From NCBI GenBank assembly GCA_019038745.1, contig JAHOYV010000046.1, positions 32,431-96,430 on the forward strand: a stretch of DNA of 64,000 nt. The letters run 5' to 3'. The notes under the pieces are model-generated. The model searched no databases. It saw only the letters and a list, made by a program, of their open reading frames with translations, and was not told where the DNA came from. The DNA is from Gemmatimonadales bacterium. GTDB taxonomy: Bacteria > Krumholzibacteriota > Krumholzibacteriia > LZORAL124-64-63. The position numbers and the translations under genes are program-made. Each line of letters opens with the position of its first letter. Position 1 is the first letter of the stretch. Shown piece by piece: positions 2,609 through 22,588 of this stretch.

Positions 2609-2681
2609 CCAGCCCCTCGGACCGCCCTGAAACAGACCTAGATCAAAATCAGGGCCGAATTACTTAACTTATTGTTTTTCG

Positions 2682-2710
2682 TTGATTTAGGAATGTTATT
2701 TGCTTATAAT
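2682..2710 (+). promoter_or_regulatory. sigma70-type promoter of the cytochrome operon
   Basis: TTGATT (2682-2687), 17 nt spacer, TATAAT (2705-2710) in an AT-rich intergenic region. Confidence 0.75.
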
Positions 2711-2713
2711 CTT

Positions 2714-2731
2714 TCGTGAAACAATTAACAA
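2714..2731. promoter_or_regulatory. Rex-like operator (NADH/NAD+ sensing repressor site)
   Basis: TCGTGAA-ACAA-TTAACAA versus Rex consensus TTGTGAA-N4-TTCACAA (2 mismatches); overlaps the predicted transcription start. Confidence 0.6.
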
Positions 2732-2762
2732 CACACCTTTTGTCCCTGAATAGGCAGGAATC

Positions 2763-3782
2763 ATGAAAAACATCATCCTAATCCTCGCCGTGGTCGCCCT
2801 GGCAGCCCCCAGCTTCGCGCAAATCTCCCCTGCTCCTCTTGGCCAGGAGGCTGAAATATTCTGGTCCCACGCACCCTATGAAATGGGCGAATGCTCCATC
2901 TGCCACCAGAACAGTGATCCGAACAACCCTGGTGAATTGATCTCCGGAGTGAATGAGCTCTGCTTTTCCTGTCACGATATCTTCCAGGAGATGTTGGGGG
3001 AATTCGAGAACGTCCACTCGCCGGTAGAGAACTCCTGCATCGATTGCCATAACCCTCACAACTCACTCTACGGCAAGCTGCTGAACCTTGATACGGCCAA
3101 CCTTTGCGGAACCTGCCACGATGATATTATGGACGGGGTTCGGAATCACAAGGTCCAGCACGATGCCATCACCCAGGGCGATGCCTGCCTGACCTGCCAC
3201 GATGCCCACGCCACGAACGTGCAGGCCATGCTGCGGGCCCTGCCCTACGACTTGTGCGTCGACTGCCACGGTAAGGACGGCATGACCGATGAGCAGGGAC
3301 GTCCAATGACCAACCTGAAGAGCCTGATTGAGGGAGCCCACATGAGCCACGGCCCGGTAGAAAACAAGGACTGCTCATCCTGTCACTTCACGCATAGCGG
3401 TGACAACTTCAGGATGTTGACCGAATCCTACCCTGCCAAGTTCTATGCTCCCTACGAGGAAGAGAACTATGCGCTCTGCTTCAACTGCCACGAGAGCAAT
3501 GTTTTCACTTCCGAGTTCACCAGTACCTTGACCGGCTTCCGGGACGGCGACAACAATCTGCATTATATTCACGTAAACAAGGCCCGCCGCGGACGCACCT
3601 GCCGCTCCTGCCACGAAGTACATGCCTCACCGCAGGAACATTTGGTCCGTGACGGAGTACCTTACGGTTCCAGTGGATGGGTCCTGAAGATCAACTTCGA
3701 GAAACTTGAAAATGGTGGATCCTGCGCGAAAACCTGTCACCCGACCAAGCCCTACGACCGGGAGATGAACGCCTCACAATGA
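2763..3782 (+). CDS. Periplasmic ~10-heme cytochrome c (doubled-CXXCH family)
   Basis: Sec signal MKNIILILAVVALAAPSFA; 9 CXXCH plus terminal CAKTCH; paired CxxCHxxH...LCxxCH units. Confidence 0.92.
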   Translation: MKNIILILAVVALAAPSFAQISPAPLGQEAEIFWSHAPYEMGECSICHQNSDPNNPGELISGVNELCFSCHDIFQEMLGEFENVHSPVENSCIDCHNPHNSLYGKLLNLDTANLCGTCHDDIMDGVRNHKVQHDAITQGDACLTCHDAHATNVQAMLRALPYDLCVDCHGKDGMTDEQGRPMTNLKSLIEGAHMSHGPVENKDCSSCHFTHSGDNFRMLTESYPAKFYAPYEEENYALCFNCHESNVFTSEFTSTLTGFRDGDNNLHYIHVNKARRGRTCRSCHEVHASPQEHLVRDGVPYGSSGWVLKINFEKLENGGSCAKTCHPTKPYDREMNASQ

Positions 3783-4666
3783 AAGCCGGCTGGGCAAAGC
3801 TCCATTGTGTGAAATCAAATATGAGGGTGCATTGGCGCACCCTCAATGGAAAATGGCTATGTCTGGCCTTTACGTTGGCCCTGCTGGGCGTGGTCTCTGC
3901 TCCCGCTTCTGATCTTGCTTTCACCTTCATCGCCGAAGGCGATCTTCTGCCTGATATGGAACTGGACAGCGCCCGCGGGGGATCCGCCGGTTATCTTGGC
4001 GGGGAAGATTCCCAGGCCCGAGTCTTCGCGTTTGTGAAGGACGGCCGCGTCAGTTCCAACGAATTTCTGGAAACGATGGCCGGATTGCATGAGGAATTTT
4101 TGGGACGCCCAGTGAGCTGGTCATTGGTTGTCTCCAAACGTTGCTCTCCTGCCTGGATTGATACCGTGTGCAACCGCTGCCCGGATGTTTCGGTCCTGAT
4201 AGACAAGGATGACAAACTGTACGGAACTCTGGGAGTCCCCCTGACTCCCGTGGTTGGGATCGGGGATGGGGATCGGATCCTGCGGGCCTATTTAACCTAT
4301 CGCAAAATCAACTACCAGGCCCTGATTTCCGCCCACGTGAAATTCATTCTGGGCGACATCGACCAGGCCGAATTGGATCTGCTCCTGAACCCCCATGGTC
4401 GGATGCGGGACACGGTAGCCGGCAGCTCCGCCCGTAAGCTGAAGCTGGCCCGCCTATTGTTTGACAAGCAGAAGTTCGATCTGGCCATCAAGCAAGTGGA
4501 AAGCGCACTCAGCGAGCAACCGAACCTCCCGGAGGCCTACGAGCTGCTGGTCGAGATCCGCCTCGCCGGCGGAGACGAGGCTGGAGCCGCCGAGGCCCGG
4601 GAAAAAGCAGATGCATTGGCTGACTCGACAGCCGGTTCCGCCGAATCAAATGGAGACGGCAACTGA
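3779..4666 (+). CDS. Exported redoxin/thioredoxin-fold + TPR protein lacking CXXC active site
   Basis: Hydrophobic signal-like segment; GDLLPDMEL...VLIDKDDKLYGTLGVPLTP redoxin-like pattern; C-terminal TPR-like helices; ATGA overlap with upstream gene; exact start uncertain. Confidence 0.6.
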   Translation: MKAGWAKLHCVKSNMRVHWRTLNGKWLCLAFTLALLGVVSAPASDLAFTFIAEGDLLPDMELDSARGGSAGYLGGEDSQARVFAFVKDGRVSSNEFLETMAGLHEEFLGRPVSWSLVVSKRCSPAWIDTVCNRCPDVSVLIDKDDKLYGTLGVPLTPVVGIGDGDRILRAYLTYRKINYQALISAHVKFILGDIDQAELDLLLNPHGRMRDTVAGSSARKLKLARLLFDKQKFDLAIKQVESALSEQPNLPEAYELLVEIRLAGGDEAGAAEAREKADALADSTAGSAESNGDGN

Positions 4667-4726
4667 CCCCGAGGACTCGCCCCCATCGTTGTCGGACCTT
4701 GATTTTCACCAACAAGAGGAGTCTGT

Positions 4727-5395
4727 ATGCCCTCCCGGACGACCTGTTTGAGGATAACCACCCTGGCGGCTCTTTGCCTGCTGTCGACCGCTACGGCATG
4801 GTCGGGTGTTGAGGATTCCGTCCACGATTTCCGTACTGAATTATCCATTAACGAGGTCTGCGTCGTTTGCCACACCCCGCACAACGCGGTCGACCCCGCA
4901 GCGGCCGGCCTGGACTACGCACCCCTGTGGGGCCACGAGTCCACAGCCGGAGTGTACACCTTGTACTCCAGTGCCTCCCTCGACCATACTCCGGGGCAAC
5001 CGGACGGCAGTACCAAGCTGTGCCTGAGCTGCCACGACGGTTCCATCGCCATCGATAACTACGGCGGCACAACCACCGGCACCGTTTTCGTGGATGATGC
5101 GACTTTCGACGGTTCACCGGGATCCGCCTCGGGCAGCGCCCTGGATTTCGGAACGAACCTGGACAACGACCACCCCGTCTCGTTCAGCTACGATGCGGTG
5201 GCCACTGCGGATCCGGAAATCCTGCCCTCGACCACGGCAACACCCATCGGGGGCACCATCGCCAGCCGATTGCTGGTCGACGGCAAGGTCCAGTGCTCAT
5301 CCTGCCACGATGTGCACGATGTGGACGGCAACCCCAGTCTGTTGGTGGTCACCAACGATGGCAGCGCCCTTTGCCTGGTCTGCCACGACAAATGA
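4727..5395 (+). CDS. omcE: OmcE-like tetraheme cytochrome c (candidate nanowire subunit)
   Basis: Signal peptide; 4 CXXCH; motif order HDF..VCVVCHTPHNA..PLW..TLYSS..CLSCHDG..GTNLDNDHPVSF..QCSSCHDVHD..GSALCLVCHDK matches my recollection of G. sulfurreducens OmcE; strong RBS GAGGAG. Confidence 0.8.
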   Translation: MPSRTTCLRITTLAALCLLSTATAWSGVEDSVHDFRTELSINEVCVVCHTPHNAVDPAAAGLDYAPLWGHESTAGVYTLYSSASLDHTPGQPDGSTKLCLSCHDGSIAIDNYGGTTTGTVFVDDATFDGSPGSASGSALDFGTNLDNDHPVSFSYDAVATADPEILPSTTATPIGGTIASRLLVDGKVQCSSCHDVHDVDGNPSLLVVTNDGSALCLVCHDK

Positions 5396-6480
5396 GATCC
5401 ACAGCGAACAAAGTTCTGCTGATCGTACTTCTGAGCCTATCACTGGGTCTTCTTTTGAGTGGCTGCACCACCGCGCCCGGGCCATCGCTGAAGGAGGCGG
5501 TTTTCTACCCCAGCCCGCCGACCTCTCCTCGTCTGCAGTACCTGACCCACTATTCCGGCGCCGAGCAGGTAACCATCCAACCGGGAACCGCTTCCCGCTT
5601 TCTGTTCGGTGACTCAGCCCCCACCGAAGCCCTGTCCAAGCCCTACGGGATGGCCCTGCACGGCGGCAAACTTTACGTTTGTGATACAAAGTTAAATTCA
5701 CTAGTGATCTTCGACATCGCACAACACAGGTTTGGTTATACCGGACTTCAGGGCAGCGAACGCCTGCGCAAGCCCCTGAACCTCTGCGTGGACAACCAGG
5801 GCAACAAATTCGTGGCCGACGCCCTGCGCGGGGAAATCGTGGTATTCGATGAGAACGATGCCTGGACCACCGTTTTCGGCGGCAACCTGCTTCAGCGCCC
5901 GGTGGATGTGGCCTGGCTCGACGGCAAACTGTACGTTTGCGATGCGGACGCCTGCACCATAGTCGTTTTCGACGCGACCACCCATGAAAGGGTCACCGTC
6001 TTCGGTGGCAAGGGAGACGACCCGGGACAATTCGCGCGGCCCACCAATCTGGCTTTGGATCCCGAGGGGAACATCTACGTCAGCGACACCATCAACGGCC
6101 GTATCCAAAAGCTGGGTCCCGATGGGAATCACGTGGCCACCTTCGGCTCCCGCGGTGACCGTCCCGGGACCTTCGCCCGACCCAAGGGTGTGGCGGTGGA
6201 TCCGGAAGGCCAACTCTATGTAGTCGATGCCGCCTTTGAAAACGTCCAGATCTTCGCTCCTGCCGGCAGGATGCTGATGGACTTCGGCGGACCCGGCGCA
6301 GACCCGGGCAATCTGGTCCTTCCCGCCCAGGTGATCATCGATACCGATCACTTGTCCCTTTTCCGCGAACTGATCGAACCCGGTTTCAAGGCCGAGCATC
6401 TGGTATTGGTATCCAGCCAGTACGGACCTCGCAAAATCAGCGTCTACGCGTACGGCCGCTCCGAGGGGAGCGGCCACTGA
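5392..6480 (+). CDS. NHL-repeat six-bladed beta-propeller lipoprotein
   Basis: Start ATG 5392 (ATGA overlap); lipobox LLLSGC; repeats such as FARPTNLALDPEGNIYVSD and FARPKGVAVDPEGQLYVVD. Confidence 0.9.
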   Translation: MRSTANKVLLIVLLSLSLGLLLSGCTTAPGPSLKEAVFYPSPPTSPRLQYLTHYSGAEQVTIQPGTASRFLFGDSAPTEALSKPYGMALHGGKLYVCDTKLNSLVIFDIAQHRFGYTGLQGSERLRKPLNLCVDNQGNKFVADALRGEIVVFDENDAWTTVFGGNLLQRPVDVAWLDGKLYVCDADACTIVVFDATTHERVTVFGGKGDDPGQFARPTNLALDPEGNIYVSDTINGRIQKLGPDGNHVATFGSRGDRPGTFARPKGVAVDPEGQLYVVDAAFENVQIFAPAGRMLMDFGGPGADPGNLVLPAQVIIDTDHLSLFRELIEPGFKAEHLVLVSSQYGPRKISVYAYGRSEGSGH

Positions 6481-7139
6481 TGGGATGGAAGGGCGCGGCA
6501 GCACTCATCCTGCTGGGAATCCTGGCGGCCGGCTGCAGTGGCCCAACCCGGGACAAGTGGCTGACTGTCTTCTTTGATGATCCTCCCGTCGAACAAATAT
6601 CCAATCCCGTGGATTCCGACTTCCAGGCTACATTCACCGCACCCCGCGTAGCCGCCGCTGCAGCGGGAACAGCACACGCCCCCTTCGAAGCAGGCGCCTG
6701 TCAGGTGTGCCACGATCTTTCCGGCAGCACTTCCTTCCCCGGAGGCGGCGGCTGGCCGGGACGCGAACCTGACGCAGGAAGGGCCGACCAGTCCAAGCAC
6801 CCGGAGACTGCGGGCTCTGCCCGACTCCGTCTGCCCGGAGACCGCCTCTGCGGCGGTTGCCACAACGATCTCGACGTTGAAACCCTGGCCCAAACCAACC
6901 TCGTTGTACACGCTCCACTAGCTACCGGGGACTGCTGCTTCTGCCACGATCCGCACCGCAGTCCGTATCCACATCTCTTGAAACAGGCTGACAGTTCGGT
7001 CCTTTGCGTGGCCTGTCACGATCAGGAAGCGGCCGCACGTCGCTGTCACCATCCGGGGGCCGGGATACAATCCTGTGTATCCTGCCACCAGCCCCACGCC
7101 TCGGCCCAACGTTTCCTTCTCCGCCGGGAGGAGCCATGA
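6480..7139 (+). CDS. Pentaheme lipoprotein cytochrome c (doubled CXXCH)
   Basis: Lipobox LAAGC; CQVCH, CGGCH, CCFCH, CVACH, CVSCH. Confidence 0.88.
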   Translation: MGWKGAAALILLGILAAGCSGPTRDKWLTVFFDDPPVEQISNPVDSDFQATFTAPRVAAAAAGTAHAPFEAGACQVCHDLSGSTSFPGGGGWPGREPDAGRADQSKHPETAGSARLRLPGDRLCGGCHNDLDVETLAQTNLVVHAPLATGDCCFCHDPHRSPYPHLLKQADSSVLCVACHDQEAAARRCHHPGAGIQSCVSCHQPHASAQRFLLRREEP

Positions 7140-9127
7140 GGTTCCGAAACTTCATCTCGGCCAACTTGTTTCAATGGTTGACGGGCTTACTGCTGAGCAT
7201 CGTGCTTGCGACGGGCGCCCTGGCCAACGGCCCCGTCTACCTGGACGAGAGCTCACCCCAAAGGAAAATCGTGGCCTTGGATAACCTGGGCGGTTGGAGT
7301 GAATTCTTCGTGCGTGGGTCCCGCACACGAACGGGGGATTTTTCCCTGGATGAGACCATCCTGGCCCCGGGGATCCACCTGGATACCGCCGGTGGTCTGT
7401 ACGAGCGACAGCTGTTGACCTTTCGGGCCGGGGGAACCCTCAGCTACCAGCATCGCAGCCTGGACGGCACCGTGGAAAATTCCGACGATCTGTCTTTCCA
7501 GGATTTCGCGGGGAACCTGGATCTGCTCCCCGAAAAGCCTCTCAAACTGCACCTGTTCGGGAATCGCACGCACGGCTGGCATTCCTCGCCTTACAAAAGC
7601 AGTACGCGAACCCGCTCCACGGCTTGGGGAATCGGTGCGGATCTCGGCTTGGCTGAATTGCCCTCGACTCTGACCTGGTCACGAGAAGAATATCTGGAGG
7701 AATACTATTCCGGAGACCGGATCACGACCCGGGACCGTCTCCGCTTCGGGGTAAAACGAAGCAACGGGCCCATTCGCGGCTCCTTGACGATGCGCCACGA
7801 AGCCTTCCGCAAAAACCTCCAGCCCCAGAACTACAGCACGGACGGAGCCGACGGGCGCATCTCCTATCGACCCGGAAAAACCCTTGGCTTGGCCGGTTCC
7901 ATGCACTGGCTCCACCGTTACGGTTCCCGGGAACATACCAACTTCAGCACCCGCGCTACCACCCGCTGGAATCCCCGTCCCGACTTCGGAGGCCAGGTCG
8001 AAGCCGAACATCGACGCCTGCGTCCCGGCGGAAAAGACGTGCCCGTTGTCGCCGCCAACTCGGGAGCCCTCTCGGTTCGGCATCTGTTGTACGGGAGCCT
8101 AGAAACCACCATGGGCATGAACCTGCAAGACGAAACCAGCCGTTTGGATGATCTCGAAGTCGGAACCTTGCGCAGAACCAGCGGCCATCTCCGCCTGGAC
8201 TACAGGAGACGCCTGGCTGTTGGCGCTTTACAGCTTTCCACCAGTCGAACCTTGCTGCGTCAGGATCGGACCGGCACGGAAACCGAGCGCCCGGTGTCCA
8301 ACGAGGGGCATGTCCTGCCCGATTTGGCCGAAGTACGTCTTGAAAATCCGGACGTGGTGCCCGGTTCGGTGGTAGTTACCGACGCAACCGGGTATGTCGT
8401 CTACACGGAGAACCTGGACTTCGCCCTGACCGAAGTGGGAGGCTTCACCCTCTTGAATCGGATCCCCACCGGGGCCATCGCCGAGGACGAGCGGATCCAG
8501 GTGGATTATCGGTACCTGCTTTCTCCCGACCTGGTTTTTGACGCGGCGACCTGGAGTTTGGCCGCCCGCTTCGACGGCAACCGGGTCTGGTCGGTTTGGA
8601 CCCGGCACCAGGACACCGACGAAACTCCGGTTTCCGGATCCTCCGAAACCGGGTTGCAGGACCGAACCCGGAATGTGGCGGGCGGACTCCTGCGCCGGGG
8701 ACGGGTCACCCTGAGACAGGAATACGAAACTCATCGCCTGGCAGAAACCCGGTTCAAAACAAATCGTCTGCAGTTGGATACCCGGTTCCGACCCGGCCGC
8801 CGCTGGCGGGCTTCCGTGGGGGCCAACCACACGTGGTCCCGAACGGTCGCCCCACGACGCACCCAACGATACCTGCAGCTGAACGCCCGGACCGCATACG
8901 CCGGCGCCGGCGGTTCGACAGCAAGTCTGGAATCCTGGTTTCGCTGGAACGAGCGGGAAGACGGAATCGCCGCCCCCGGCGACGGCCTGTACGGTGGCCG
9001 ATTGCGCTACACACGTCGCTGGCGAGCCCTTACCCTTGAAGCGGAAGTCACCCTGCAAAGCACCGACCGCAACGAGATCGACGACGACCGGCTTGTCTTC
9101 CGCACCGGATTACGGAGGGTCTTCTGA
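7136..9127 (+). CDS. Large outer-membrane beta-barrel protein (~663 aa)
   Basis: Start ATG 7136 (ATGA overlap, GGAGGAG RBS); signal peptide ending ALA; alternating amphipathic strands; C-terminal Phe (RRVF). Confidence 0.75.
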   Translation: MRFRNFISANLFQWLTGLLLSIVLATGALANGPVYLDESSPQRKIVALDNLGGWSEFFVRGSRTRTGDFSLDETILAPGIHLDTAGGLYERQLLTFRAGGTLSYQHRSLDGTVENSDDLSFQDFAGNLDLLPEKPLKLHLFGNRTHGWHSSPYKSSTRTRSTAWGIGADLGLAELPSTLTWSREEYLEEYYSGDRITTRDRLRFGVKRSNGPIRGSLTMRHEAFRKNLQPQNYSTDGADGRISYRPGKTLGLAGSMHWLHRYGSREHTNFSTRATTRWNPRPDFGGQVEAEHRRLRPGGKDVPVVAANSGALSVRHLLYGSLETTMGMNLQDETSRLDDLEVGTLRRTSGHLRLDYRRRLAVGALQLSTSRTLLRQDRTGTETERPVSNEGHVLPDLAEVRLENPDVVPGSVVVTDATGYVVYTENLDFALTEVGGFTLLNRIPTGAIAEDERIQVDYRYLLSPDLVFDAATWSLAARFDGNRVWSVWTRHQDTDETPVSGSSETGLQDRTRNVAGGLLRRGRVTLRQEYETHRLAETRFKTNRLQLDTRFRPGRRWRASVGANHTWSRTVAPRRTQRYLQLNARTAYAGAGGSTASLESWFRWNEREDGIAAPGDGLYGGRLRYTRRWRALTLEAEVTLQSTDRNEIDDDRLVFRTGLRRVF

Positions 9128-10176
9128 TGCTCCGGTGGAATACACACCGACACGCGGGGATAGGTTTCCTGCTGGTGGGTACCTGGTTGGCGGCAAATAG
9201 TTTCCCCTTTCCTGCACAAGCCCAGGACCTTGTCTTTCCTGCCCCACCGGCCGAGGCCCGACTGGCCTACCTCGGTGAGATTTCCGACCTGGAGGCGTTC
9301 AGCAAGCCCCGAAACCTCATCGGCAAACTGACGGATTGGATCGCCGGAGGCAGACAGAAGCCACAATTGATTCAGCCTCACGGAGTAGGCCTGGGCGATG
9401 ACGCTCTGCTGGTAGCGGACCCGGAAACGGGCTTCGTTCACTACTTTTCCCTGGCTGATTCCACCTGGAAACGGATCCCGGCGAAGAACAGGCTGCACTC
9501 GCCAGTGGATGCCGCATCGGGACCGGACGGGGTGATCTTCATCTCGGATTCCGGGGCAGCCCAGGTAGTGGCCTGTGACAAGAACGGCGAAATCCTCTTT
9601 GCCTGCGACGGCCCTTTTGTCCGTCCCACCGGTCTGGCCTTCGACCAAGGCAGCGGACGCCTGCTTGTCGCCGATGCCGCCGCCCACCACCTGGTTTGGG
9701 TTGATCCGGACGGTAGCCGGTTGGGAACAATCGGGTGCCGGGGCACGGAGCCCGGGGAGTTCAACTTCCCCATCGACATTGCACTGACCTCCACGGGAAA
9801 CATTCTGGTCCTGGATGCCCTTAACTTTCGAATCCAGGTTCTGGATGGAGACGGGAATTTCGTGCGGGAATTCGGAGTCCAGGGCGATTCACCCGGCCGT
9901 TTCTCCAGACCACGCGGCCTTTGTGCCGACGCGGCAGACAACATCCTGGTTACGGACGCCCTGCAGGACAATTTCCAGATCTTCGACGCCACCGGACGTT
10001 TGTTACTGGCTGTGGGCGGCACGGGCCGGGATCCTGGATCGTTCTGGATGCCCGCGGGAATCTGCGCCGGGACCGATGGTCGCATTTTCGTAGCCGACGC
10101 CTACAATCGCCGGGTCCAGGTCTTTGCCTACCTGGCATCGTCCGGGCAGGACGGGCCGGAAGAAGGATCAGAATAA
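9127..10176 (+). CDS. NHL-repeat beta-propeller protein
   Basis: Signal peptide; repeats EFNFPIDIALT, FSRPRGLCAD, FWMPAGICAG..IFVADAYNRRVQVF. Confidence 0.9.
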   Translation: MLRWNTHRHAGIGFLLVGTWLAANSFPFPAQAQDLVFPAPPAEARLAYLGEISDLEAFSKPRNLIGKLTDWIAGGRQKPQLIQPHGVGLGDDALLVADPETGFVHYFSLADSTWKRIPAKNRLHSPVDAASGPDGVIFISDSGAAQVVACDKNGEILFACDGPFVRPTGLAFDQGSGRLLVADAAAHHLVWVDPDGSRLGTIGCRGTEPGEFNFPIDIALTSTGNILVLDALNFRIQVLDGDGNFVREFGVQGDSPGRFSRPRGLCADAADNILVTDALQDNFQIFDATGRLLLAVGGTGRDPGSFWMPAGICAGTDGRIFVADAYNRRVQVFAYLASSGQDGPEEGSE

Positions 10177-11897
10177 TGATGAGCCGAATCTCTCGTGTTT
10201 GTCTCTTGCTGACAGGGCTGGCGTGTTTGGCCTGGTTGATCCCAGCCGTCCAGGTCGGAAGCGCCCGGGCGGATGTCGTGAACACCCGCCACAACCTCTC
10301 GGTCAGTGGTCCGGGTACGGTGAAGGCCCTTGAGGAGACCCGAGTCTGCGTTTTTTGTCACACGCCACACTCGGCTTCGACCGAGGCCCAGCTCTGGAAT
10401 CGCAACTCTTCGGCCGCCGGCTACACACCCTACACCTCCTCCACCCTGGACGCCCTTGCCGGCCAACCAACCGGATCCTCTCGATTGTGTCTGGGTTGCC
10501 ACGATGGAACCATCGCCCTGGGATCGGTGATCAGCGAATCGACGGTAATCACCATGGCCGGCGGAGTAACGGTGATGCCGGACGGTGACACCAATCTGAA
10601 CGTCGACCTGCACGACGACCATCCGTTTTCCTTCCTCTATGACGCCGCCTTGGCTGCCTCCGACGGCCAACTCATCGACCCGGCCGTCCTTCCGGCCGAA
10701 ACCGTCCTGGACCCCTCCGGCGAAATCCAGTGCACCACTTGTCACGATCCGCACGACGACGCAAACGGCTTCTTCCTGGTGTTGCCGGGGGACGACGCCG
10801 GCCTCTGCGAAGCCTGCCACAGTCCCGACCAGTGGGCTTCGGCATCCCACAACACTCCACTGCTCCGTAAAATCCATTCCCCAGCCGCCACCGCGACGGC
10901 AACCGACTCCGCACACGACAAGGGCATACCATCGACCAACAGCTGTCTGAACTGTCACGACGCTCACGGCGGCGACGGCGGTGCTCGTCTGTTGGCCTTC
11001 GCCCGGGAAGAAGAAGGGTGCATTGTCTGCCACGGAGTCACCGGGCCCGCTTCGGACATCGAATCGGAACTGGGAAAGTTCTCCGCCCACCCGGTGGCGC
11101 TGACCGACGGCGTGCACGACCCCAGAGAGGCCCTACCGATAGCTTCGGCCCACGTAGAATGCGTTGACTGCCACAATCCCCATGCCACCCGCGCCGAGGC
11201 AACCAATGCCCCCGACGTACCCGGTGCACTTTCCGGAGTGCGGGGCCTGAACGGGGACAACGTGACGGTCGAGGAAGCGGCCTACACCTACGAGGTCTGC
11301 TACAAATGCCATGCCGGATCCGCTTGGAGACCGGGCCCGGCCACACCGCGCCAGGTGGTGCAATCCAACTCGATGTTGGAATTCGATCCTGGCAACCCCT
11401 CCTTCCACCCGGTGGAGGGACCGGGAAACAACCCCAACGTGCCCAGCCTGTTGCACCCCTACACCGAAACCAGCATCATCACCTGTACCGACTGCCACAA
11501 CAGCAGCGGCGATTCCCCCGCGGGCCTCCACGGATCGGATTTCCCCCACCTGTTGGGCTGGAACTACGAAACCGCCCAGGGCACCATCGAAAGCTACGAA
11601 GCCTACGAACTTTGTTACCGCTGCCATGACCGGACAACGATATTATCCAACGCCAGCTGGCAATCCCACCGCAAGCATGTGGTCAACGAGGGCTTCTCCT
11701 GCAACTCCTGCCACGATCCACACGGTATCAGCGCCACCCAGGGCGACGAATCAAACCACTCCCGGCTGATCAATTTTGATCTGACCTACGTGGAACCCGA
11801 AGATGATACCGGTTTGCTGGAATTCGTGGACAACGGGGGATTCGGCACCTGTACCCTGAAGTGCCATGGGGATAATCATCGCGACAAGAACTGGTAG
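10176..11897 (+). CDS. ~12-heme cytochrome c with N-terminal OmcE-like tetraheme domain
   Basis: Start ATG 10176 or 10179 (TAATG overlap); signal peptide; 11 CXXCH plus terminal CTLKCH; first four hemes colinear with the 4727-5395 product. Confidence 0.9.
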   Translation: MMSRISRVCLLLTGLACLAWLIPAVQVGSARADVVNTRHNLSVSGPGTVKALEETRVCVFCHTPHSASTEAQLWNRNSSAAGYTPYTSSTLDALAGQPTGSSRLCLGCHDGTIALGSVISESTVITMAGGVTVMPDGDTNLNVDLHDDHPFSFLYDAALAASDGQLIDPAVLPAETVLDPSGEIQCTTCHDPHDDANGFFLVLPGDDAGLCEACHSPDQWASASHNTPLLRKIHSPAATATATDSAHDKGIPSTNSCLNCHDAHGGDGGARLLAFAREEEGCIVCHGVTGPASDIESELGKFSAHPVALTDGVHDPREALPIASAHVECVDCHNPHATRAEATNAPDVPGALSGVRGLNGDNVTVEEAAYTYEVCYKCHAGSAWRPGPATPRQVVQSNSMLEFDPGNPSFHPVEGPGNNPNVPSLLHPYTETSIITCTDCHNSSGDSPAGLHGSDFPHLLGWNYETAQGTIESYEAYELCYRCHDRTTILSNASWQSHRKHVVNEGFSCNSCHDPHGISATQGDESNHSRLINFDLTYVEPEDDTGLLEFVDNGGFGTCTLKCHGDNHRDKNW

Positions 11898-11918
11898 CCG
11901 CCGGGTCAGTCTTCAGGA

Positions 11919-12941: not shown

Positions 12942-13077
12942 AGCCTTCATTCTCCTGGATTGGGTTTTGGGCCCGTCCTGATATTTCCTCAACCACATGT
13001 TTGGAAGTTCGGCCGATAATATTATACCGAAAGAGTTGTTGCCTGCAAATCATGCCTTGATTTCCTATCATTCAATA

Positions 13078-13099: not shown

Positions 13100-13115
13100 A
13101 TAAATGAGGTTAACA

Positions 13116-13667
13116 ATGTCTGACGTTTCAGAGATCGACAAAGTTCTACGGGAAAACATCCGAATCATGGCGCAGGTCATCACGGAAGTTTGCCAGCGCA
13201 GCACGCGCAAGCAGGTCAGCCCCTCCACATTGTCCAGGAACCAGTTCTATATCCTGAACATCCTGGGCACCAGTGGGGAATTCCTGATCAGCGATCTGGC
13301 ACGGAGCCTGGACATCAGTCCTGCGGCTGCGAGCAAGAACATTGACCGTTTGGAGCAAATGGAATTCGTTGAACGCCGAGCCCGACCCGAGGACCGGCGC
13401 AGCCTTGAAGTGTGCCTGTTGCCCAAGGGCAAAGCCATCGTGGATGAGTTCAAACTCGTAACAATCGAAAAACAAGCCCCGCTCCTGGCCCAGTTCTCCG
13501 CCGAGGAGAAAGTGGTTCTGCTGGACCTACTGCGGAGAATCGTGAAGTACACCGTGAACGAGGAACACAACACCGAATTGATCTGTCTGCAATGCGGTGG
13601 AGCCTGTGGTGAAGAATGTGTCGTCAAAGACGGTATGGGGCCATGCGCCTTGCCGCCAAAACAATGA
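13116..13667 (+). CDS. MarR-family regulator with Cys-rich C-terminal tail
   Basis: wHTH ISDLARSLDISPAAASKNIDRLEQMEFVER..PEDRRS; tail CLQCGGACGEEC..C; GAGGT RBS before ATG 13116. Confidence 0.88.
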   Translation: MSDVSEIDKVLRENIRIMAQVITEVCQRSTRKQVSPSTLSRNQFYILNILGTSGEFLISDLARSLDISPAAASKNIDRLEQMEFVERRARPEDRRSLEVCLLPKGKAIVDEFKLVTIEKQAPLLAQFSAEEKVVLLDLLRRIVKYTVNEEHNTELICLQCGGACGEECVVKDGMGPCALPPKQ

Positions 13668-13725
13668 CCCTGCTCCAAATCCGGCGTGAATTCAGCCGGA
13701 CCAGGAGCGGAACAGGGAGTTGATC

Positions 13726-14655
13726 ATGGTCAGTCGTCGGGATTTCATGAAAATATCGGGAAGTGTGGCCGGAACTGCCGCCGCGTCCCTGGCCGGAGTA
13801 CAAACGGCCTGCGCGTCGGGGCATCACCTCGAACCGGACCGGATCGGGGTTTTGACCGACTACACCGAGTGTATCGGCTGCCGACGTTGTGAATGGGCCT
13901 GCGCCCAGGAAAACGGACTGCCCTTCGGAGACCTGGAATCCTGCGATGATCAGAGCGTCTTCCAGGAAATGCGACGTCCTGACGAGAGGCAGTATACGGT
14001 TGTGAATCGTTACCCGGCTCCCGAGGGTTCGGACAAGCCCCTGGATGTGAAGGTCAATTGCATGCACTGCGAGCATCCGACTTGCGTCTCGGCCTGCATT
14101 GTTGGAGCCCTCAAGAAGGACCCCATGGGGCCGGTGACCTACGATGCCTCGGCCTGCATCGGCTGCCGCTACTGCATGGTGGCTTGTCCCTTCCAGATCC
14201 CTGCCTACGAGTACCATGATCCTCTGACGCCCAAGGTTCTGAAGTGCACTCTCTGCACCGAACGCACGCTCGAGGAAAACAAAATGCCGGCCTGCGTTGA
14301 GATGTGTCCCAAGGAGGCCCTGACCTTCGGTCGCCGGGAGGATTTGCTGGACTTGGCTCGCGACCGCATCCGCCGCAATCCCGACCGCTACCTACCCCAC
14401 ATCTTCGGAGAATACGACGGTGGCGGCACTTCTTGGCTCATGATCGCCGACCGTGACTTTACCGAGGTGGATTTGCCTGAATTGTCTGACCGCAGCGCAG
14501 CGGAAATAACCGAGGGCATTCAACACGGTATTTTCAGGGGTTTTACAGGTCCCCTGATGGTCTTTGGACTCGTAAGCATCCTGGGCAAATCCATGGGTGA
14601 CCAGGAAGGTCGACTTGACCAGGAAGGTCAGCGTAAGGAGGGCGACAATGAATAA
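13726..14655 (+). CDS. hybA: Tat-exported 4Fe-4S electron-transfer subunit (HybA/HmcB/NrfC family)
   Basis: SRRDFMK Tat motif; CIGCRRCEWAC, CMHCEHPTCVSAC, CIGCRYCMVACP, KCTLC..PACVEMCP; C-terminal TM helix. Confidence 0.88.
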   Translation: MVSRRDFMKISGSVAGTAAASLAGVQTACASGHHLEPDRIGVLTDYTECIGCRRCEWACAQENGLPFGDLESCDDQSVFQEMRRPDERQYTVVNRYPAPEGSDKPLDVKVNCMHCEHPTCVSACIVGALKKDPMGPVTYDASACIGCRYCMVACPFQIPAYEYHDPLTPKVLKCTLCTERTLEENKMPACVEMCPKEALTFGRREDLLDLARDRIRRNPDRYLPHIFGEYDGGGTSWLMIADRDFTEVDLPELSDRSAAEITEGIQHGIFRGFTGPLMVFGLVSILGKSMGDQEGRLDQEGQRKEGDNE

Positions 14656-15943
14656 CCCAATCAACGGCAGCAGCGCAGGCGCCCTGCCCCTGAATGCCCC
14701 CGAGGCAACCGGCCATGGCGACCATGAGGTCTGCCTCCCCCTGGCCGAGCAGGGCCGGGTCCCCTTCATCACGCCGGGAGTCATGGTACTCATGGGCTTT
14801 GCGGCTATCGGGCTCCTCGTTTTGGCCGCCCGGTTCATCTTCGGCATCGGTGCGGTGACCAACCTGGACAACCAGTACCCCTGGGGACTGTGGATCGGCA
14901 TCGACGTGGCTACCGGAGTGGCCCTGGCCGCCGGTGGATTCACAACCGCCTTCATCGCCCACGTCCTGCACCAGAATCGTTACCACGAAATCGTCCGGCC
15001 CGCCTTGTTGACGGCGATGCTCGGCTACACTTTCGTGGCCCTGGGTGTGGTCGTGGATCTGGGCCGCTACTACAACATTTGGCACGTGCTGGTGCCGAAG
15101 TACTGGCAGGGTAATTCAGCCCTCTTCGAAGTGGGTATGTGCGTCTGCATCTACTTGACGGTGCTGTACATCGAGTTCCTGCCCATCGTGTGCGAGCGAT
15201 TCATCGGCCGGATCAACCTGCCGGGCCCCCTTGGAGCATTGAACGGCCCACTGGATAAGATCCTACGCCTGGCTGATGCAGCCTTGAACAAAACCATCAC
15301 GTTCTTCATCATCATGGGCGTCGTCCTGTCCTGTGCTCACCAGTCATCGCTGGGTACCCTGATGGTCATCGCCCCGACCAAGCTACACGCGCTTTGGTAC
15401 ACGCCGATCCTGCCGCTTCAGTTCCTGCTTTCAGCCTTCGCAGTGGGCCTGGCAATGGCCATTTTCGAGTCGCTGATCGCCTCAAGGTCGTTCAAACGGC
15501 CCTTCGAGATGAGCGTTCTGTCGCCGCTGGGACGGATGATTCCCTTCCTGCTGACGATCTATTTCGCAGCCAAGCTCATTGACCTGGTCAACCGCGGCGT
15601 CTTGCCGCTGGCCCTGGAGCCGACCCTCCAGGCAGCGACTTTCTGGATCGAGATCATCGGCGGAGTGCTCCTGCCCATTTTCATCTTCCTGATCCACGGC
15701 TTGCGCCGCCGGCCCGGTTGGCTATTCGCTGCCGCGGCCATGGTGGTCCTGGGCGTGGCCCTGAACAGGGTCAATGTATTCATCATCGGATATAAACCGT
15801 TGTTCGGTGACGGACCCTACGTTCCGGCCATTCCCGAGGTCCTCCTGACCATCGGCTTCATCTCCATCCTGACCCTGGTCTACCGGGCCTGGGTATTCAT
15901 CTTCCCGATTCTCCCGGTAGAAGGAGGTCACGACAATGCGTAG
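14648..15943 (+). CDS. hybB: NrfD/HybB-family quinone-interacting membrane subunit
   Basis: GAVTNLDNQYPWGLWIGIDVATGVALAAGG, VDLGRY, HQSSLG motifs; about 10 TM helices. Confidence 0.88.
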   Translation: MNNPINGSSAGALPLNAPEATGHGDHEVCLPLAEQGRVPFITPGVMVLMGFAAIGLLVLAARFIFGIGAVTNLDNQYPWGLWIGIDVATGVALAAGGFTTAFIAHVLHQNRYHEIVRPALLTAMLGYTFVALGVVVDLGRYYNIWHVLVPKYWQGNSALFEVGMCVCIYLTVLYIEFLPIVCERFIGRINLPGPLGALNGPLDKILRLADAALNKTITFFIIMGVVLSCAHQSSLGTLMVIAPTKLHALWYTPILPLQFLLSAFAVGLAMAIFESLIASRSFKRPFEMSVLSPLGRMIPFLLTIYFAAKLIDLVNRGVLPLALEPTLQAATFWIEIIGGVLLPIFIFLIHGLRRRPGWLFAAAAMVVLGVALNRVNVFIIGYKPLFGDGPYVPAIPEVLLTIGFISILTLVYRAWVFIFPILPVEGGHDNA

Positions 15944-17123
15944 CTTTTCTGCAACAAGACTCATTCTCCTGATGGTGATGTTGATAATCTTCCTGGTTCC
16001 ATTGGCCGCATTCGGAGCCGCATCCGGGACAGCGTCCGACCAAGTGGTAGATAAGGATCACCCCCAGGACAAGATGCATCAGGAAGAAACCGGTCGGAAA
16101 TTGCAGTCCTGCCTGGACTGCCACAAGTGCAAACGCCCCACTCGAAAAGACCCCTGTCTGGTGGCTTGCCCACGCTACGAGAGTCACTTCTTCAGCCAGC
16201 AGCAGGTAGAGGAAAGCCCGGAAATCATCATCATCGATCAGCTTTCCGAATTGTACGGGTCCGTTGTCTTCGCCCACCGCTTACACGCGGAAATGGCCGA
16301 GATGGCGGGCGGTTGCGAAACCTGCCACCACTATTCCGAGCAATCCGGGGTCATCCCACCTTGCCGTGAATGTCACGATGAAGAGCGTAACGTAGTGGAC
16401 CTGTCCAAGCCCGCCCTGAAGGGGGCCTACCACCGGCAGTGCATGAATTGCCACTTGGACTGGAGCCATGAAAACGCCTGCGGCTTCTGCCATGAGCAAG
16501 CCACCGACGAGTTGAGTGCAGTCACACCCGACACCACCGATATCGTGGGCATCCCGCATCCGATCATTGCGGCCACGCCTACCTACACCTACAACACGCC
16601 CCACGAGGACGGCCCCATCGTCACCTTCCACCACAATGACCACGTGGATATGTTTGGTCAGAAGTGTGTGGACTGCCACCGGGGAGACAGTTGCAGTCGC
16701 TGCCACGATGCCGATCGAGAAGAGGCGAAGCCGCTGAATCACATCACGAGCTGCTGCTCCTGCCACGGCAAGCGGGATTGTACGTTCTGCCACAAGGATG
16801 AGGCGATGCCCAACTTCGAGCATGGGTTGTCCACCGGGTGGTCGCTGGAGCCGTATCACACGGGCAAGGACTGCACCTTGTGCCACGGCAAGCCGGATTC
16901 CTTCCGTAAGCCGGAGACCACATGCACTTCCTGCCATATCCACTGGGAGGATGGAGCATTCAACCACGCCGTTACCGGTTTGACGCTGGACGACGACCAT
17001 ATCGACAGCGATTGCGTGGATTGTCACGTTAAGTTGGAGTTTACGATCACTCCCACTTGTGACAACTGCCACGACGAACCCATGCTGCCGGAAAAAATCC
17101 CCGGTCGATTGAAACTGCATTGA
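15936..17123 (+). CDS. 13-heme cytochrome c3-family (HmcA-like) protein
   Basis: Signal peptide; 13 CXXCH; c3-type motifs VVFAHRLH and LKGAYHRQCMNCH. Confidence 0.92.
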   Translation: MRSFSATRLILLMVMLIIFLVPLAAFGAASGTASDQVVDKDHPQDKMHQEETGRKLQSCLDCHKCKRPTRKDPCLVACPRYESHFFSQQQVEESPEIIIIDQLSELYGSVVFAHRLHAEMAEMAGGCETCHHYSEQSGVIPPCRECHDEERNVVDLSKPALKGAYHRQCMNCHLDWSHENACGFCHEQATDELSAVTPDTTDIVGIPHPIIAATPTYTYNTPHEDGPIVTFHHNDHVDMFGQKCVDCHRGDSCSRCHDADREEAKPLNHITSCCSCHGKRDCTFCHKDEAMPNFEHGLSTGWSLEPYHTGKDCTLCHGKPDSFRKPETTCTSCHIHWEDGAFNHAVTGLTLDDDHIDSDCVDCHVKLEFTITPTCDNCHDEPMLPEKIPGRLKLH

Positions 17124-19025: not shown

Positions 19026-20195
19026 CTACTCGACACCCGGCCCAAAGCTGGCATGACGCTCCCACTTGCGGTCGTCGTCGTGACAGTTGTCACAGGTCGT
19101 ATGCTGTCCATACCCCTCGGAGTGGCAGTCCGAGCAATCTGAATCCAGATGCACCTCGTCCAGCACAACACCCGTCACATTGTGGTTGAAGTGTTTCTCG
19201 TCGAAACCATCGAAGTGACAGGTCTCGCAACGAGGATCATTGGCCTGGTACTTGCCCGGGTCATGGTGGCAGTCATTGCACTGCAGCACCTTGTGATAGG
19301 CCTCCAGTGGCCAACCGATATCCGCGTGATCAAACAGATCATTGGAATTCCGACCGTGGCACTCCTTGCACCCTTTTTCCTCGTCATGGCACTGATAACA
19401 AGTGTCATGCAAGTCGATGTCCTCGATCAGCCCCAGGGGATGAGAATCTGAGCCATGTACGTGGCAGCTGGCACAGGTCTCATTCTGGTGGCAGACACTG
19501 CAATCACGGTTGTACTGTTCAACGTGGTTATGGTGATGGAAAGGAACGACGCCTCCCTCTTCATAACTGGTTTCAAACAGGATCAGATCCTTAACTATCA
19601 GCGGGGCCTGGTGAATCAGATCGGGCAGAGCATCGATCTCGGCCTTTGACATGCCACCTTCCTTTTTACGGTGACACCACTCGCAATGAGTTTCGGTGTC
19701 CCACTCGGAGTGGCAGTTGAGACATTGGCGATGGTAAGCAGCCTTCAAACTGGGTTGAATCTTGCTTTTTACGCCTTCGGGGGCATGACATTCCTTGCAG
19801 GCGGGATGCCCTGCCGTAGCCGGTGCGAAGTGGTGGCAGTTCACGCAACCGCCCCCCATCTCGGACATCTGGGCATGCTTCTCGTGGCTGAAGTACACCG
19901 GGTCGTAGACCTTCTCCAGTTCATCCAGAACCATAACTTTTTCCTGGGGCAAGCCCGATTCACCCTTCTTCACCTTGCTTCTGATGCAGAAATTCTTGCT
20001 CAGACAAAGATCGGAATGGGTGGGAAACTCGCAGGTATGACAAAGCGAGCAGGCCAGATTTTCTCCTGCCTCCGGGACATAATCCTCGAAGGCCAAGAGA
20101 GGGGAGGCCGCAAAAATCAAGACCCCTCCCATAATCAGGGCCAAGGCCCTCCCGGCAGAGCGCCGGCCAAATCCGTGAATACTTCCAGTCCGCAT
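19026..20195 (-). CDS. 13-heme cytochrome c3-family protein (paralog of 15936-17123)
   Basis: Signal peptide; 13 CXXCH colinear with the other copy (FSHEKH, LKAAYHRQCLNCH, FNHNVTGVVLDEVH). Confidence 0.92.
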   Translation of the reverse strand: MRTGSIHGFGRRSAGRALALIMGGVLIFAASPLLAFEDYVPEAGENLACSLCHTCEFPTHSDLCLSKNFCIRSKVKKGESGLPQEKVMVLDELEKVYDPVYFSHEKHAQMSEMGGGCVNCHHFAPATAGHPACKECHAPEGVKSKIQPSLKAAYHRQCLNCHSEWDTETHCEWCHRKKEGGMSKAEIDALPDLIHQAPLIVKDLILFETSYEEGGVVPFHHHNHVEQYNRDCSVCHQNETCASCHVHGSDSHPLGLIEDIDLHDTCYQCHDEEKGCKECHGRNSNDLFDHADIGWPLEAYHKVLQCNDCHHDPGKYQANDPRCETCHFDGFDEKHFNHNVTGVVLDEVHLDSDCSDCHSEGYGQHTTCDNCHDDDRKWERHASFGPGVE

Positions 20196-20197
20196 GG

Positions 20198-20344
20198 TTA
20201 ATCCTTTCCGGCGGTTTTCTTACCGTTCTTCTTGGGAGCCCCGATAGCTTTCGAGAACACCACAAACGAAATGAAGTAGAGCAGGACTACTATGTATTCC
20301 AGGCCCTTCGTTGCGAAAATATCCAGGTACGTGTATTCAGCCAT
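20198..20344 (-). CDS. HmcD-like small membrane protein (48 aa), absent from ORF track
   Basis: Manual translation MAEYTYLDIFATKGLEYIVVLLYFISFVVFSKAIGAPKKNGKKTAGKD; TKGxEY plus single TM helix; AAAGGT RBS; stop 2 nt before the cytochrome start. Confidence 0.8.
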   Translation of the reverse strand: MAEYTYLDIFATKGLEYIVVLLYFISFVVFSKAIGAPKKNGKKTAGKD

Positions 20345-20400
20345 GATGGCACCTTTCCCGGGCACGGCCCCTTCGAACAGGGACCGGCCGATCTTCCGAT

Positions 20401-21639
20401 CTAGTTGTCGTCCATGTCTGCGGCCCAGGCCGGCGGATCACTCAGTACAGGCATCCGCATGACGACCCAACGCACAGCCCACAGTTCCAGCAAAACAACG
20501 GTCACGGTCACCCAAATCTCTGCCCAGTGGGGAATGTAAGGAGTCGGATCAAACCAGTTGAAGGCGATTACGGAAATATTCAACCGGTTCAAAAGAATTC
20601 CGATCAGGGTCAATCCCGCAGCCACCTTGATCAACTGGACGTTACCCTCCCGAACAGCCTTGAAGTACAAGACCAAGGGGACGAGAACGAATCCTACCAC
20701 CTCAAGCAGGAACCATAAGCCCCACTTGGTACCCAGCAGACTGAACTGCTGACCGTGAATAACCACCAGAACCTTCAGGAACAGATAAACGAACATCGCC
20801 CCGGCGCAGATCCGGCCCAAGCCGATTACAATGTCGTCCTGATTGGCATGTTGTTCGTGACCCAGACGAGCCGCGAAAACCTTATGACTGATCGATCCCT
20901 CGAAGATCACCATGGAGAGGCCCGAGAAAATACTGGAGACGAAGAACAGGACCGGAATAAACTCCGTGTACCACAGCGGATGAATCTTGCTCTCGGCCAT
21001 CAGGAAAAGAGCACCCAAACCCGACTGGTGCAGGGTCGACAGGGTAATACCGAAGATCACTGAAGCGATGGTCAGACCGCCTACAATCTTCCGCAGCCTC
21101 TTCATCCCCAACCACTCGGCAATTGCAGGCGAGAACTCAATGAACTCGGCAGCCATGTAGAGCAGGAAGTGCCAGGCCACCAGGAAAAGCACCGAACTGA
21201 CCCCGAAGTTGTTGCCGATGATCGGGTTGATGATTTTCCAGGGACGACCAAGATCCAGCATCAAGGCTCCGGCATAGAACATGTAGGCCAGGAACCCGTT
21301 GAGAACCACGGCCCGAACGATGGCGTGATAACGATGCCGTCCCATGATGTAGACGATGAAAGTCAGCGTGTAGGCTCCGCCTGCAAACGCTACCCCGCAC
21401 ACCACGTCAAAACCGATCCAGATACCCCACGGCGTCTGCTGATCAAGATTCGTGATGGCCCCGATCCCATTGACGAAGCGCAGGACGATCAGCCCCATGC
21501 CCACCAGGATTACGGGAATGGATATCATGTTGAAGGGAGTAAGAATTTTCCCCTTCGGCTTCATCTCGCTTAGGAGGAAGCGAACGAAATCCCCGATGCT
21601 CCCGATATTGGGCTTCGCGGTTTCCTGAATTTTGTTCAT
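20401..21639 (-). CDS. NrfD/HmcC-family membrane subunit
   Basis: LTPFN..GAITNLDQQTPWGIWIGFDVVCGVAFAGG, LDLGRPW, LHQSGLG; multiple TM helices. Confidence 0.9.
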   Translation of the reverse strand: MNKIQETAKPNIGSIGDFVRFLLSEMKPKGKILTPFNMISIPVILVGMGLIVLRFVNGIGAITNLDQQTPWGIWIGFDVVCGVAFAGGAYTLTFIVYIMGRHRYHAIVRAVVLNGFLAYMFYAGALMLDLGRPWKIINPIIGNNFGVSSVLFLVAWHFLLYMAAEFIEFSPAIAEWLGMKRLRKIVGGLTIASVIFGITLSTLHQSGLGALFLMAESKIHPLWYTEFIPVLFFVSSIFSGLSMVIFEGSISHKVFAARLGHEQHANQDDIVIGLGRICAGAMFVYLFLKVLVVIHGQQFSLLGTKWGLWFLLEVVGFVLVPLVLYFKAVREGNVQLIKVAAGLTLIGILLNRLNISVIAFNWFDPTPYIPHWAEIWVTVTVVLLELWAVRWVVMRMPVLSDPPAWAADMDDN

Positions 21640-22547: not shown

Positions 22548-22588
22548 CCTCAAACCTTTCCGATCAAGGGGAATCGACTGAAACCACC

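Follow-up and report, generated by a model that had tools for sequence, protein, structure and literature searches.

An OmcE-type tetrahaem cytochrome and its multihaem gene cluster in an uncultured member of the Krumholzibacteriota

Gene content of the locus

In silico analysis of a 64,000-nucleotide (nt) stretch of the Krumholzibacteriota assembly GCA_019038745.1 (contig JAHOYV010000046.1, positions 32,431 to 96,430), referred to here as the window, has revealed a co-directional block of genes for multihaem cytochromes, beta-propeller proteins and a predicted outer-membrane barrel. Within this block lies a small gene, the product of which (P0001) is a tetrahaem cytochrome of the OmcE family, the family of the filament-forming OmcE of Geobacter sulfurreducens. 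The features of the cluster and of the adjacent redox modules are collected in Table 1. The block begins with the decahaem cytochrome gene, and all further members, up to the gene of the 12-haem cytochrome, are read from the same strand.

Table 1. Features of the OmcE-type cluster and of the neighbouring redox modules (positions in the window; aa, amino acids)
Feature	Position	Strand	Basis or remark
Exported multihaem cytochrome, 339 aa, MtrA/DmsE-like, 9 CXXCH + 1 CX3-4CH	2763..3782	+	Paired_CXXCH_1, E 4e-48
Exported protein, 295 aa, C-terminal TPR region	3779..4666	+	TPR_16/TPR_14, both under the Pfam cut-offs
Shine-Dalgarno-like aaGAGGAG, 5 nt before the P0001 ATG	4714..4721	+	within the 60-nt gap 4667-4726
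OmcE-family tetrahaem cytochrome (P0001, 222 aa), proposed filament subunit	4727..5395	+	homology, motifs
NHL-repeat beta-propeller lipoprotein, 362 aa	5392..6480	+	lipobox LLSGC
Pentahaem lipoprotein cytochrome, 219 aa, 5 CXXCH	6480..7139	+	lipobox LAAGC
Outer-membrane beta-barrel (predicted), 663 aa, ends ...RRVF	7136..9127	+	Atlas model likeness to MtrB/PioB
NHL-repeat beta-propeller protein, 349 aa, signal peptide, no lipobox Cys	9127..10176	+	domain search
12-haem cytochrome, 573 aa, UetJ-like, 11 CXXCH + 1 CX3CH	10176..11897	+	motifs, homology
MarR-family regulator with NrfC-like iron-sulphur (FeS) protein (twin-arginine (Tat) signal), NrfD-like membrane protein and multihaem cytochrome	13104..17123	+	domains
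Second FeS / NrfD / multihaem cytochrome module	19026..22553	-	domains

The tetrahaem protein P0001

The P0001 frame is free of stops, and its translation revealed a set of characteristic features: (i) four CXXCH motifs (C45/C48/H49, C99/C102/H103, C190/C193/H194 and C216/C219/H220); (ii) four further histidines, namely H33 (SVHDF), H52 (TPHNA), H149 (NDHPV) and H197 (DVHDV); (iii) a C-terminus, LCLVCHDK, at which the stop follows two residues past the last haem motif; (iv) an N-terminus with a basic-hydrophobic stretch followed by ATA/AWS at residues 22-26, which by eye resembles a signal peptide. Cleavage at ATA/AWS would leave a mature chain of about 196-198 aa. The initial annotation, made from the letters of the DNA, had described a mature protein of about 197 aa with four CXXCH motifs and four distal histidines, ending right after the last haem, and the translation bears out each of these statements. 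Export by Sec is putative and is suggested by the N-terminal features. A lipoprotein was also considered and rejected, as LAALC carries Leu at position -1 and is not a lipobox.

These features are shared throughout the family. Exactly four CXXCH motifs are present in all 121 P0001-family members examined, and in all 121 the chain ends exactly two residues after the last of them, the final residue being lysine in 120. In the profile alignment, which draws on 62 of the 121 family sequences collected, the eight cysteines and the histidines H33, H49, H52, H103, H149, H194, H197 and H220 are invariant (62/62). Four conserved histidines beyond the CXXCH motifs, completing the bis-His ligation of the haems, have been described for OmcE homologues (PMC13712944). 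To regard the end of the chain right after haem 4 as a defining trait of the family is our own reading and not a published criterion.

A phmmer search of all PDB chains gave two real matches for P0001, both over the whole chain: 9yuq_N (E 1.2e-21; query residues 9-222, chain residues 3-218) and 7tfs_A (E 3.2e-18, 69.5 bits; query 14-222, chain 12-232). The entry 7TFS is the G. sulfurreducens OmcE (GSU0618) filament, while 9YUQ, with its 16 chains, is inferred from the chain count and the molecule name to be the OmcE bundle of Desulfuromonas soudanensis WTL. The profile of the P0001 family (62 sequences) recovered the same two structures with far lower expectation values (9YUQ, E 6.4e-41; 7TFS, E 7.7e-40, 140 bits), and no third PDB match was found for it at E <= 0.01. 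Histidines H33, H52, H149 and H197 align with histidines of both 7tfs and 9yuq, and both solved chains align with P0001 through their last residue. The OmcE motifs that the initial annotation had named (tkhdl, cvfchtphna, ftlysss, cmschdg, gtdlsndhpvnf, cgschkvhd and gsklclgchkk) are all found in the 7tfs_A row, in the same order. The alignment to OmcE that it had proposed as a check gives full-length homology to both solved filaments, and the match is not confined to the CXXCH motifs.

Because of this full-length homology, the invariant ligands, the family-wide C-terminus and the canonical gene cluster described below, the identification of P0001 as a stand-alone tetrahaem subunit of the OmcE family is strongly supported at the level of sequence. 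The earlier designation of P0001 as the polymerising subunit is thus borne out as far as the subunit is concerned, and its polymerisation is suggested by homology.

Compared with the OmcE of G. sulfurreducens, P0001 has four CXXCH motifs and four extra histidines in the same order, an N-terminal histidine soon after the signal peptide, and the same end two residues past haem 4; both genes are accompanied by genes for an NHL propeller lipoprotein, for multihaem cytochromes and for a large barrel. The differences relate to the lengths of the loops between the haem motifs and to the source, P0001 coming from the Krumholzibacteriota and not from the Thermodesulfobacteriota. The OmcE of D. soudanensis (DSOUD_2954), which forms anti-parallel nanowire bundles (9YUQ), is the best PDB match of P0001. 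A likeness to the hexahaem filament OmcS of G. sulfurreducens would be expected in the insulated haem chain and in an interfacial haem that takes a histidine from the neighbouring subunit. No sequence relation to OmcS was found, as it is absent from the PDB matches, at E <= 0.01, of both the P0001-family profile and the profile of the 12-haem cytochrome family.

Organization of the cluster and comparison with known systems

The smallest omcE cluster has been described as two multihaem cytochromes, two beta-propeller lipoproteins, OmcE and a large beta-barrel, and the presence of the barrel and the beta-propeller lipoproteins is used to choose those OmcE homologues that are likely to form nanowires (PMC13712944, Petersen et al. 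2026). The same gene context surrounds P0001, with a barrel, a propeller lipoprotein and two multihaem cytochromes, and P0001 thus lies in a cluster of the published minimal omcE/uet type. Two differences from the minimal cluster are evident. The window adds the MtrA-like decahaem cytochrome and the TPR protein upstream, and its second propeller has no lipobox. Accessory genes for NHL, TPR and barrel proteins have been described for OmcE and OmcS (osc) clusters alike (PMC13712944).

The order OmcE, NHL protein, pentahaem cytochrome, barrel, NHL protein and 12-haem cytochrome is kept in all five of the related loci whose downstream sequence is long enough (L001, L002, L004, L005 and L007), and the first NHL lipoprotein is also syntenic in locus L003. 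The decahaem-TPR pair upstream of the omcE-like gene is seen only in L003, and no match to it lies upstream in loci L001, L002, L004 and L007. The decahaem cytochrome reaches 77.7 bits against the DmsE-family decahaem model, under the family cut-off of 192. The TPR gene, which overlaps the decahaem gene by 4 nt, is kept in L003 at 49% identity. Its product carries a CNRC (CXXC) motif in the N-terminal half, before the TPR region, and could be a thiol-redox or apocytochrome-handling helper.

No Pfam family matches the 663-aa barrel at E <= 0.01, so that a match to the MtrB_PioB family (PF11854) is lacking as well. An Atlas model of the barrel (predicted template-modelling score, pTM, 0.64) gives template-modelling (TM) scores of 0.54-0.57 to the MtrB/PioB clusters and of 0.86-0.87 to hypothetical proteins of about 650 residues from several other phyla. 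The cluster resembles MtrCAB and PioAB in this MtrB/PioB-like barrel fold and in having a periplasmic MtrA/DmsE-like decahaem cytochrome in the same block. It differs from them in that its extracellular cytochromes are of the OmcE type, not the MtrC type, and in that two NHL propellers are integral to it.

A further comparison concerns the uet cluster of 'Ca. Tenderia electrophaga', which encodes the tetrahaem UetA, the barrel UetC, the NHL proteins UetH and UetI and the undecahaem UetJ (10.1101/2022.05.06.490989), and which is present in some Gallionella too (PMC10734462). The core parts of both clusters are the same when matched by description, and orthology is judged here by what has been published on the uet proteins and by the taxonomy of the named matches. 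The 573-aa protein shows the 11 CXXCH motifs described for UetJ, and the named members of its family are largely Gammaproteobacteria. Among the nine proteins of 2763-11897 no match was found to a peptidyl-prolyl isomerase (PPIase; UetB) or a cupredoxin (UetF). A stand-alone trihaem c7 protein (UetD/E/G) was likewise not found, the Cytochrome_C7 matches in this interval lying only inside larger multihaem proteins. In place of these uet-specific parts the window cluster has the pentahaem lipoprotein. In contrast to the outward flow favoured here, the electron flow proposed for the Tenderiales is inward (10.1101/2022.05.06.490989). The same source raises, as an idea, that UetA or UetJ might form polymers. 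A PCC3 system (He et al. 2017) was also considered and rejected. As that source describes it, PCC3 has cytochromes with 21 or 34 haems (medians) and a dedicated inner-membrane protein, and NHL proteins are not mentioned in its available text.

The cluster is followed by a convergent galE gene (11919-12998, minus strand), after which there is no glycosyltransferase block; in this it differs from the omcE cluster of G. sulfurreducens. Clusters without such a block represent the marine pattern with non-glycosylated OmcE (PMC13712944), and since galE alone follows the cluster, this minimal pattern fits. Beyond galE lie the two FeS/NrfD/multihaem modules. The first of them opens with the MarR-family gene (13104-13667), and the multihaem cytochromes of the modules are about 390 aa long. 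They are plausible candidates for quinol:cytochrome oxidoreductases that would feed the cluster, an association suggested by proximity. On the other side, a gene for a PrkA-type serine kinase (257-2608) lies on the same strand, 154 nt ahead of the first cytochrome gene.

A second OmcE module in the 12-haem cytochrome

P0001 has two matches in the source genome, namely itself and the N-terminus of the 573-aa cytochrome encoded at the end of the cluster (41% identity). Residues ~30-218 of the latter (about 10263-10829) are a second complete module of the OmcE type, which the initial annotation, sound on the identity of the subunit, had left unweighed. Against the G. sulfurreducens OmcE (7tfs) the long protein scores 92.9 bits (E 1.7e-25), compared with 69.5 bits for P0001. 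The profile of its family, built from 40 of the 120 listed homologues, reaches 156.8 bits (E 5.9e-45), compared with 140 bits for the P0001-family profile. An alignment of the short- and long-family profiles spans 186 columns, with 39% identity (E 2e-61).

At E <= 1e-5 the 12-haem family comprises 3577 proteins, drawn from 5581 candidates with lengths of 315-1003 aa, and its OmcE module retains 55-60% identity across phyla. Named relatives come from Thiohalobacter, Azoarcus, Rhodocyclaceae, Thiotrichales, other Gammaproteobacteria, Verrucomicrobiales, Kiritimatiellia and Nitrospirae. Eleven CXXCH motifs and one CX3-4CH motif are present in 118 of the 120 listed members. The eight histidines of the OmcE type are invariant in the family, and so is a ninth, H225, situated ten residues past haem 4. 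After H225 the 573-aa protein carries eight more haems, about 355 residues lying beyond haem 4. In a quick tree of 102 rows, composed of the best matches to each query and including no Geobacter sequence, the short and long OmcE-like forms split with a Shimodaira-Hasegawa-like approximate likelihood-ratio (SH-aLRT) support of 100, which suggests that they are separate, old paralogue groups.

With its higher scores against the solved OmcE and its very large, well-conserved family, the 12-haem cytochrome might itself be the main extracellular wire, P0001 then being an accessory or spare paralogue. The high expression reported for UetJ and its predicted extracellular location (10.1101/2022.05.06.490989) would suit such a role. 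The long form is nevertheless a highly improbable wire. The solved subunits and the 121 short homologues stop two residues past haem 4, and because about 355 residues follow haem 4 in the long form, a head-to-tail contact like that of OmcE is precluded at that end. The deep split between the two paralogue groups speaks against this role as well.

Another role for the long protein is suggested by the description of a predicted 'anchor' as an OmcE-like protein with nine histidines and four haems (PMC13712944). According to the available text of that source, the omcE operons encode no candidate for an anchor or a tip, and the sole anchor candidate lies outside the cluster. The N-terminal module of the 573-aa protein, taken together with H225, matches the predicted nine histidines and four haems. 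It is conceivable, if somewhat doubtful, that the product of 10176-11897 is the missing end-piece, anchor or tip, of OmcE-type wires. The long protein would then join one end of the P0001 polymer via the normal OmcE interface. H225 would close its own open haem in cis, the N-terminal donor would be His39, and the protein would either wire the filament to the barrel or form the filament tip. If this is true, the short and long proteins would make up a conserved two-part system across many phyla. The pairing, with its ninth histidine, offers a concrete candidate for the anchoring or capping of filaments, which is an open question in the field.

The same pairing also bears on whether P0001 polymerises at all. 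P0001 may instead be a non-polymerising tetrahaem cap at the cell surface, placed on the complex of barrel and 12-haem cytochrome and adding four haems only, in the manner of MtrC on MtrAB. A fixed 1:1 heterocomplex would be suited by the long form following the short one in all five loci with downstream sequence, and most of the phylum genomes with a match likewise show one short frame (~220-260 aa) and one long frame (~550-730 aa). An interaction of UetA with UetJ, one of them acting as a trans-membrane conduit, has been proposed (10.1101/2022.05.06.490989), and the claim of a P0001 polymer is drawn from homology. We nevertheless regard the cap as unlikely. Both OmcEs that have been examined experimentally (G. 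sulfurreducens and D. soudanensis) form filaments (PMC13712944). A head-to-tail, self-complementary interface would need just such a strict C-terminus (121/121) and an invariant N-terminal histidine, and an interface that docks P0001 on the OmcE module of the long form would dock P0001 on P0001 too.

Proposed function and direction of electron flow

The reading favoured here, with a rough probability of 0.6, is that P0001 is a subunit of the OmcE/UetA type which polymerises like OmcE and carries electrons outward from the barrel complex. After export by Sec and attachment of the haems, P0001 would cross the barrel or mount on it and would polymerise head to tail. In OmcE the interfacial haem is ligated by one histidine from each of two adjacent subunits (PMC9473688, PMC12954529, PMC13712944), and in the P0001 polymer one axial histidine would correspondingly go to the interfacial haem of the neighbour. 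Our guess for the donated residue is the N-terminal His33, which would lie some 7-9 residues after the start of the mature protein. The haems would then line up in one unbroken, insulated chain. Electrons would pass from the quinol pool to the adjacent NrfCD-type/multihaem modules, then to the periplasmic cytochromes, the barrel and the filament, the likely junction between the last two being the 12-haem cytochrome with its N-terminal OmcE module. The final acceptors would be either partner cells or solids, for example Fe(III)/Mn(IV) oxides.

Several points weigh against polymerisation and outward transfer by P0001. Polymerisation is argued from sequence homology, and both AlphaFold2 models obtained here are poor. 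For P0001 (62 sequences, no haems) the mean predicted local distance difference test (pLDDT) was 51.3 and the pTM 0.33, too low for a comparison with the OmcE haem-core fold, in which parallel and T-shaped haem pairs alternate. For the 573-aa cytochrome (40 sequences, no haems) the pLDDT was 53.3, with only residues ~345-573 reasonable, and a Foldseek search of this model against the PDB gave no match at E <= 0.001. The top Foldseek row, 7tfs, with 33% identity over 202 columns, was rejected as support for the fold, since its values (E 5.8e-3, root-mean-square deviation (RMSD) 19.7 A, TM 0.11/0.26) reflect the sequence and not the fold. A prediction of the P0001 dimer (residues 27-222, with only four of the eight haems) gave ipSAE values of 0.03 and 0.02, compared with a threshold of 0.42, and is counted neither for nor against binding. 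The two solved OmcEs differ from each other by 5.2 A RMSD over ~180 pairs, the fold being variable outside the haem core (PMC13712944), and for this reason the interface residues cannot be judged from the sequence. Tetrahaem OmcE-like genes are moreover described as 'widely distributed', and not all of them need form wires (PMC13712944). For UetA, polymerisation has been proposed only, and the electron flow of uet is inward (10.1101/2022.05.06.490989).

The argument from expression belongs among these points. The initial annotation had pointed to a gap of about 60 nt before the P0001 gene, to its GAGGAG site and to the overlap of the other junctions, and this arrangement was confirmed. With starts taken at the ATG ahead of each signal peptide, every other pair of adjoining genes in the cluster shares 1 or 4 nt (-4, -4, -1, -4, -1, -1). 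The step from a strong ribosome-binding site to a high-copy subunit fared worse. In a survey of 47 gene starts of the window, the Shine-Dalgarno match covers at least five bases in 19 and at least six in six, so that the site of P0001 is ordinary for the window; within the cluster, the genes of the barrel and of the second NHL protein have sites as good. A scan of 2400-13200 gave four promoter-like and eleven terminator-like sites, compared with 3.5 and 11.3 expected from shuffled sequence. One promoter-like (sigma-70-like) site, at 2682-2710, sits before the first cytochrome gene, with such sites at chance level, and the scan found none in the 60-nt gap before P0001. The argument for high expression from an own gap and ribosome-binding site is accordingly weak.

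The direction of flow can be approached through the rest of the genome. Both a member of the haem-copper oxidase family and a cytochrome bd are encoded in it, which weighs against the favoured direction in that electrons could also flow inward to oxygen. The cluster could run inward, as proposed for the uet cluster of the cathode-oxidising Tenderiales and some Gallionella; electrons would be taken up from partner cells, Fe(II) or reduced minerals, with P0001 as the collecting end, whether or not it polymerises. Such a direction would agree with the taxa in which the nearest named homologues of the long protein occur (Thiohalobacter, Azoarcus, Rhodocyclaceae, Thiotrichales and other Gammaproteobacteria) and with the core of tetrahaem protein, barrel, two NHL proteins and 11-12-haem cytochrome shared with the uet clusters of Tenderiales and Gallionella. 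A metagenome-assembled genome (MAG) of the Krumholzibacteria with Cyc2 and an OmcS-type FeGenie match was discussed in 2021 as possibly oxidising or reducing iron (PMC7914226). Inward flow is judged improbable all the same. The large subunit of ribulose-1,5-bisphosphate carboxylase/oxygenase (RuBisCO) was not found in the source genome, which is 91% complete, the solved OmcE filaments stem from metal reducers, and UetB, UetF and the three trihaem c7 proteins specific to uet are not in the window cluster. Since electrons can often pass through multihaem conduits either way, the direction is not decided by the sequence. Because no RuBisCO large subunit was found, the balance leans toward a heterotroph that discharges electrons. 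The two FeS/NrfD/multihaem modules and the MarR gene next to the cluster add pathway context to the favoured reading.

Distribution of the OmcE-type genes

At E <= 1e-5, 1613 of 4041 candidate proteins were recognised as relatives of P0001 of near length. Those at 64-89% identity are unnamed MAG proteins; among the matches listed, Lutibacter profundi, Bacteroidales, Bacteroidota, Chlorobi, Calditrichaeota and Hydrogenedentes are represented at 45-55% identity. The nearest relatives beyond the Krumholzibacteriota thus bear names of Bacteroidota, Ignavibacteria/Chlorobi-type, Calditrichota and Hydrogenedentota MAGs. A P0001-type match at E <= 1e-10 is present in 15 of the 201 Krumholzibacteriota genomes sampled, the source genome included (10 of the 125 of high quality), and at E <= 1e-5 in two of the 40 nearest relative genomes. 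With a match in only 15 of 201 sampled genomes, the omcE-type gene is patchy in the Krumholzibacteriota and therefore marks a particular lifestyle, not the whole phylum. A same-class relative (G029:C110, loci L011/L013, about 41533-43027) has two tandem short OmcE-like genes followed by an NHL gene; each of the two is 37% identical to P0001, and the genome has five OmcE-like matches in all, including a frame of ~595 aa.

Two further observations were made on the source genome. Its contig C29 (about 17089-20022, minus strand) carries a 1099-aa frame with more than 20 doubled-CXXCH domain matches, a giant multihaem cytochrome. In the window itself, the GuaA gene (32739-34682) is unusually long. 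Its longest frame codes for 647 aa, and the protein as given in the database measures, like its relatives, 605-635 aa. A typical GuaA has about 510-525 aa. The long form is kept in relatives of the Krumholzibacteria type, the closest taxon-named ones being three Krumholzibacteria/-iia entries at 81, 79 and 76% identity. Most of the other named GuaA matches read 'bacterium' only, and the three entries place the source genome in the Krumholzibacteriota.

OmcE homologues have been reported from the Thermodesulfobacteriota, Pseudomonadota, Aquificota, Campylobacterota and Nitrospirota, and the available text of the report names no phylum of the Fibrobacterota-Chlorobiota-Bacteroidota (FCB) group (PMC13712944). 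Among the papers searched, none pairs 'OmcE' with 'Krumholzibacter'. The kind of cluster is known from the literature of 2022-2026; what is new is its occurrence in the Krumholzibacteriota, and new too is one more independent case of a short form paired with a long form that has the invariant ninth histidine. The OmcE-type filaments solved so far come from only two Desulfuromonadia, and a complete, well-conserved version of the system is now found in an uncultured sediment phylum of the FCB group. This suggests long-range or outer-membrane electron transfer for common heterotrophic sediment bacteria that are not considered metal respirers.

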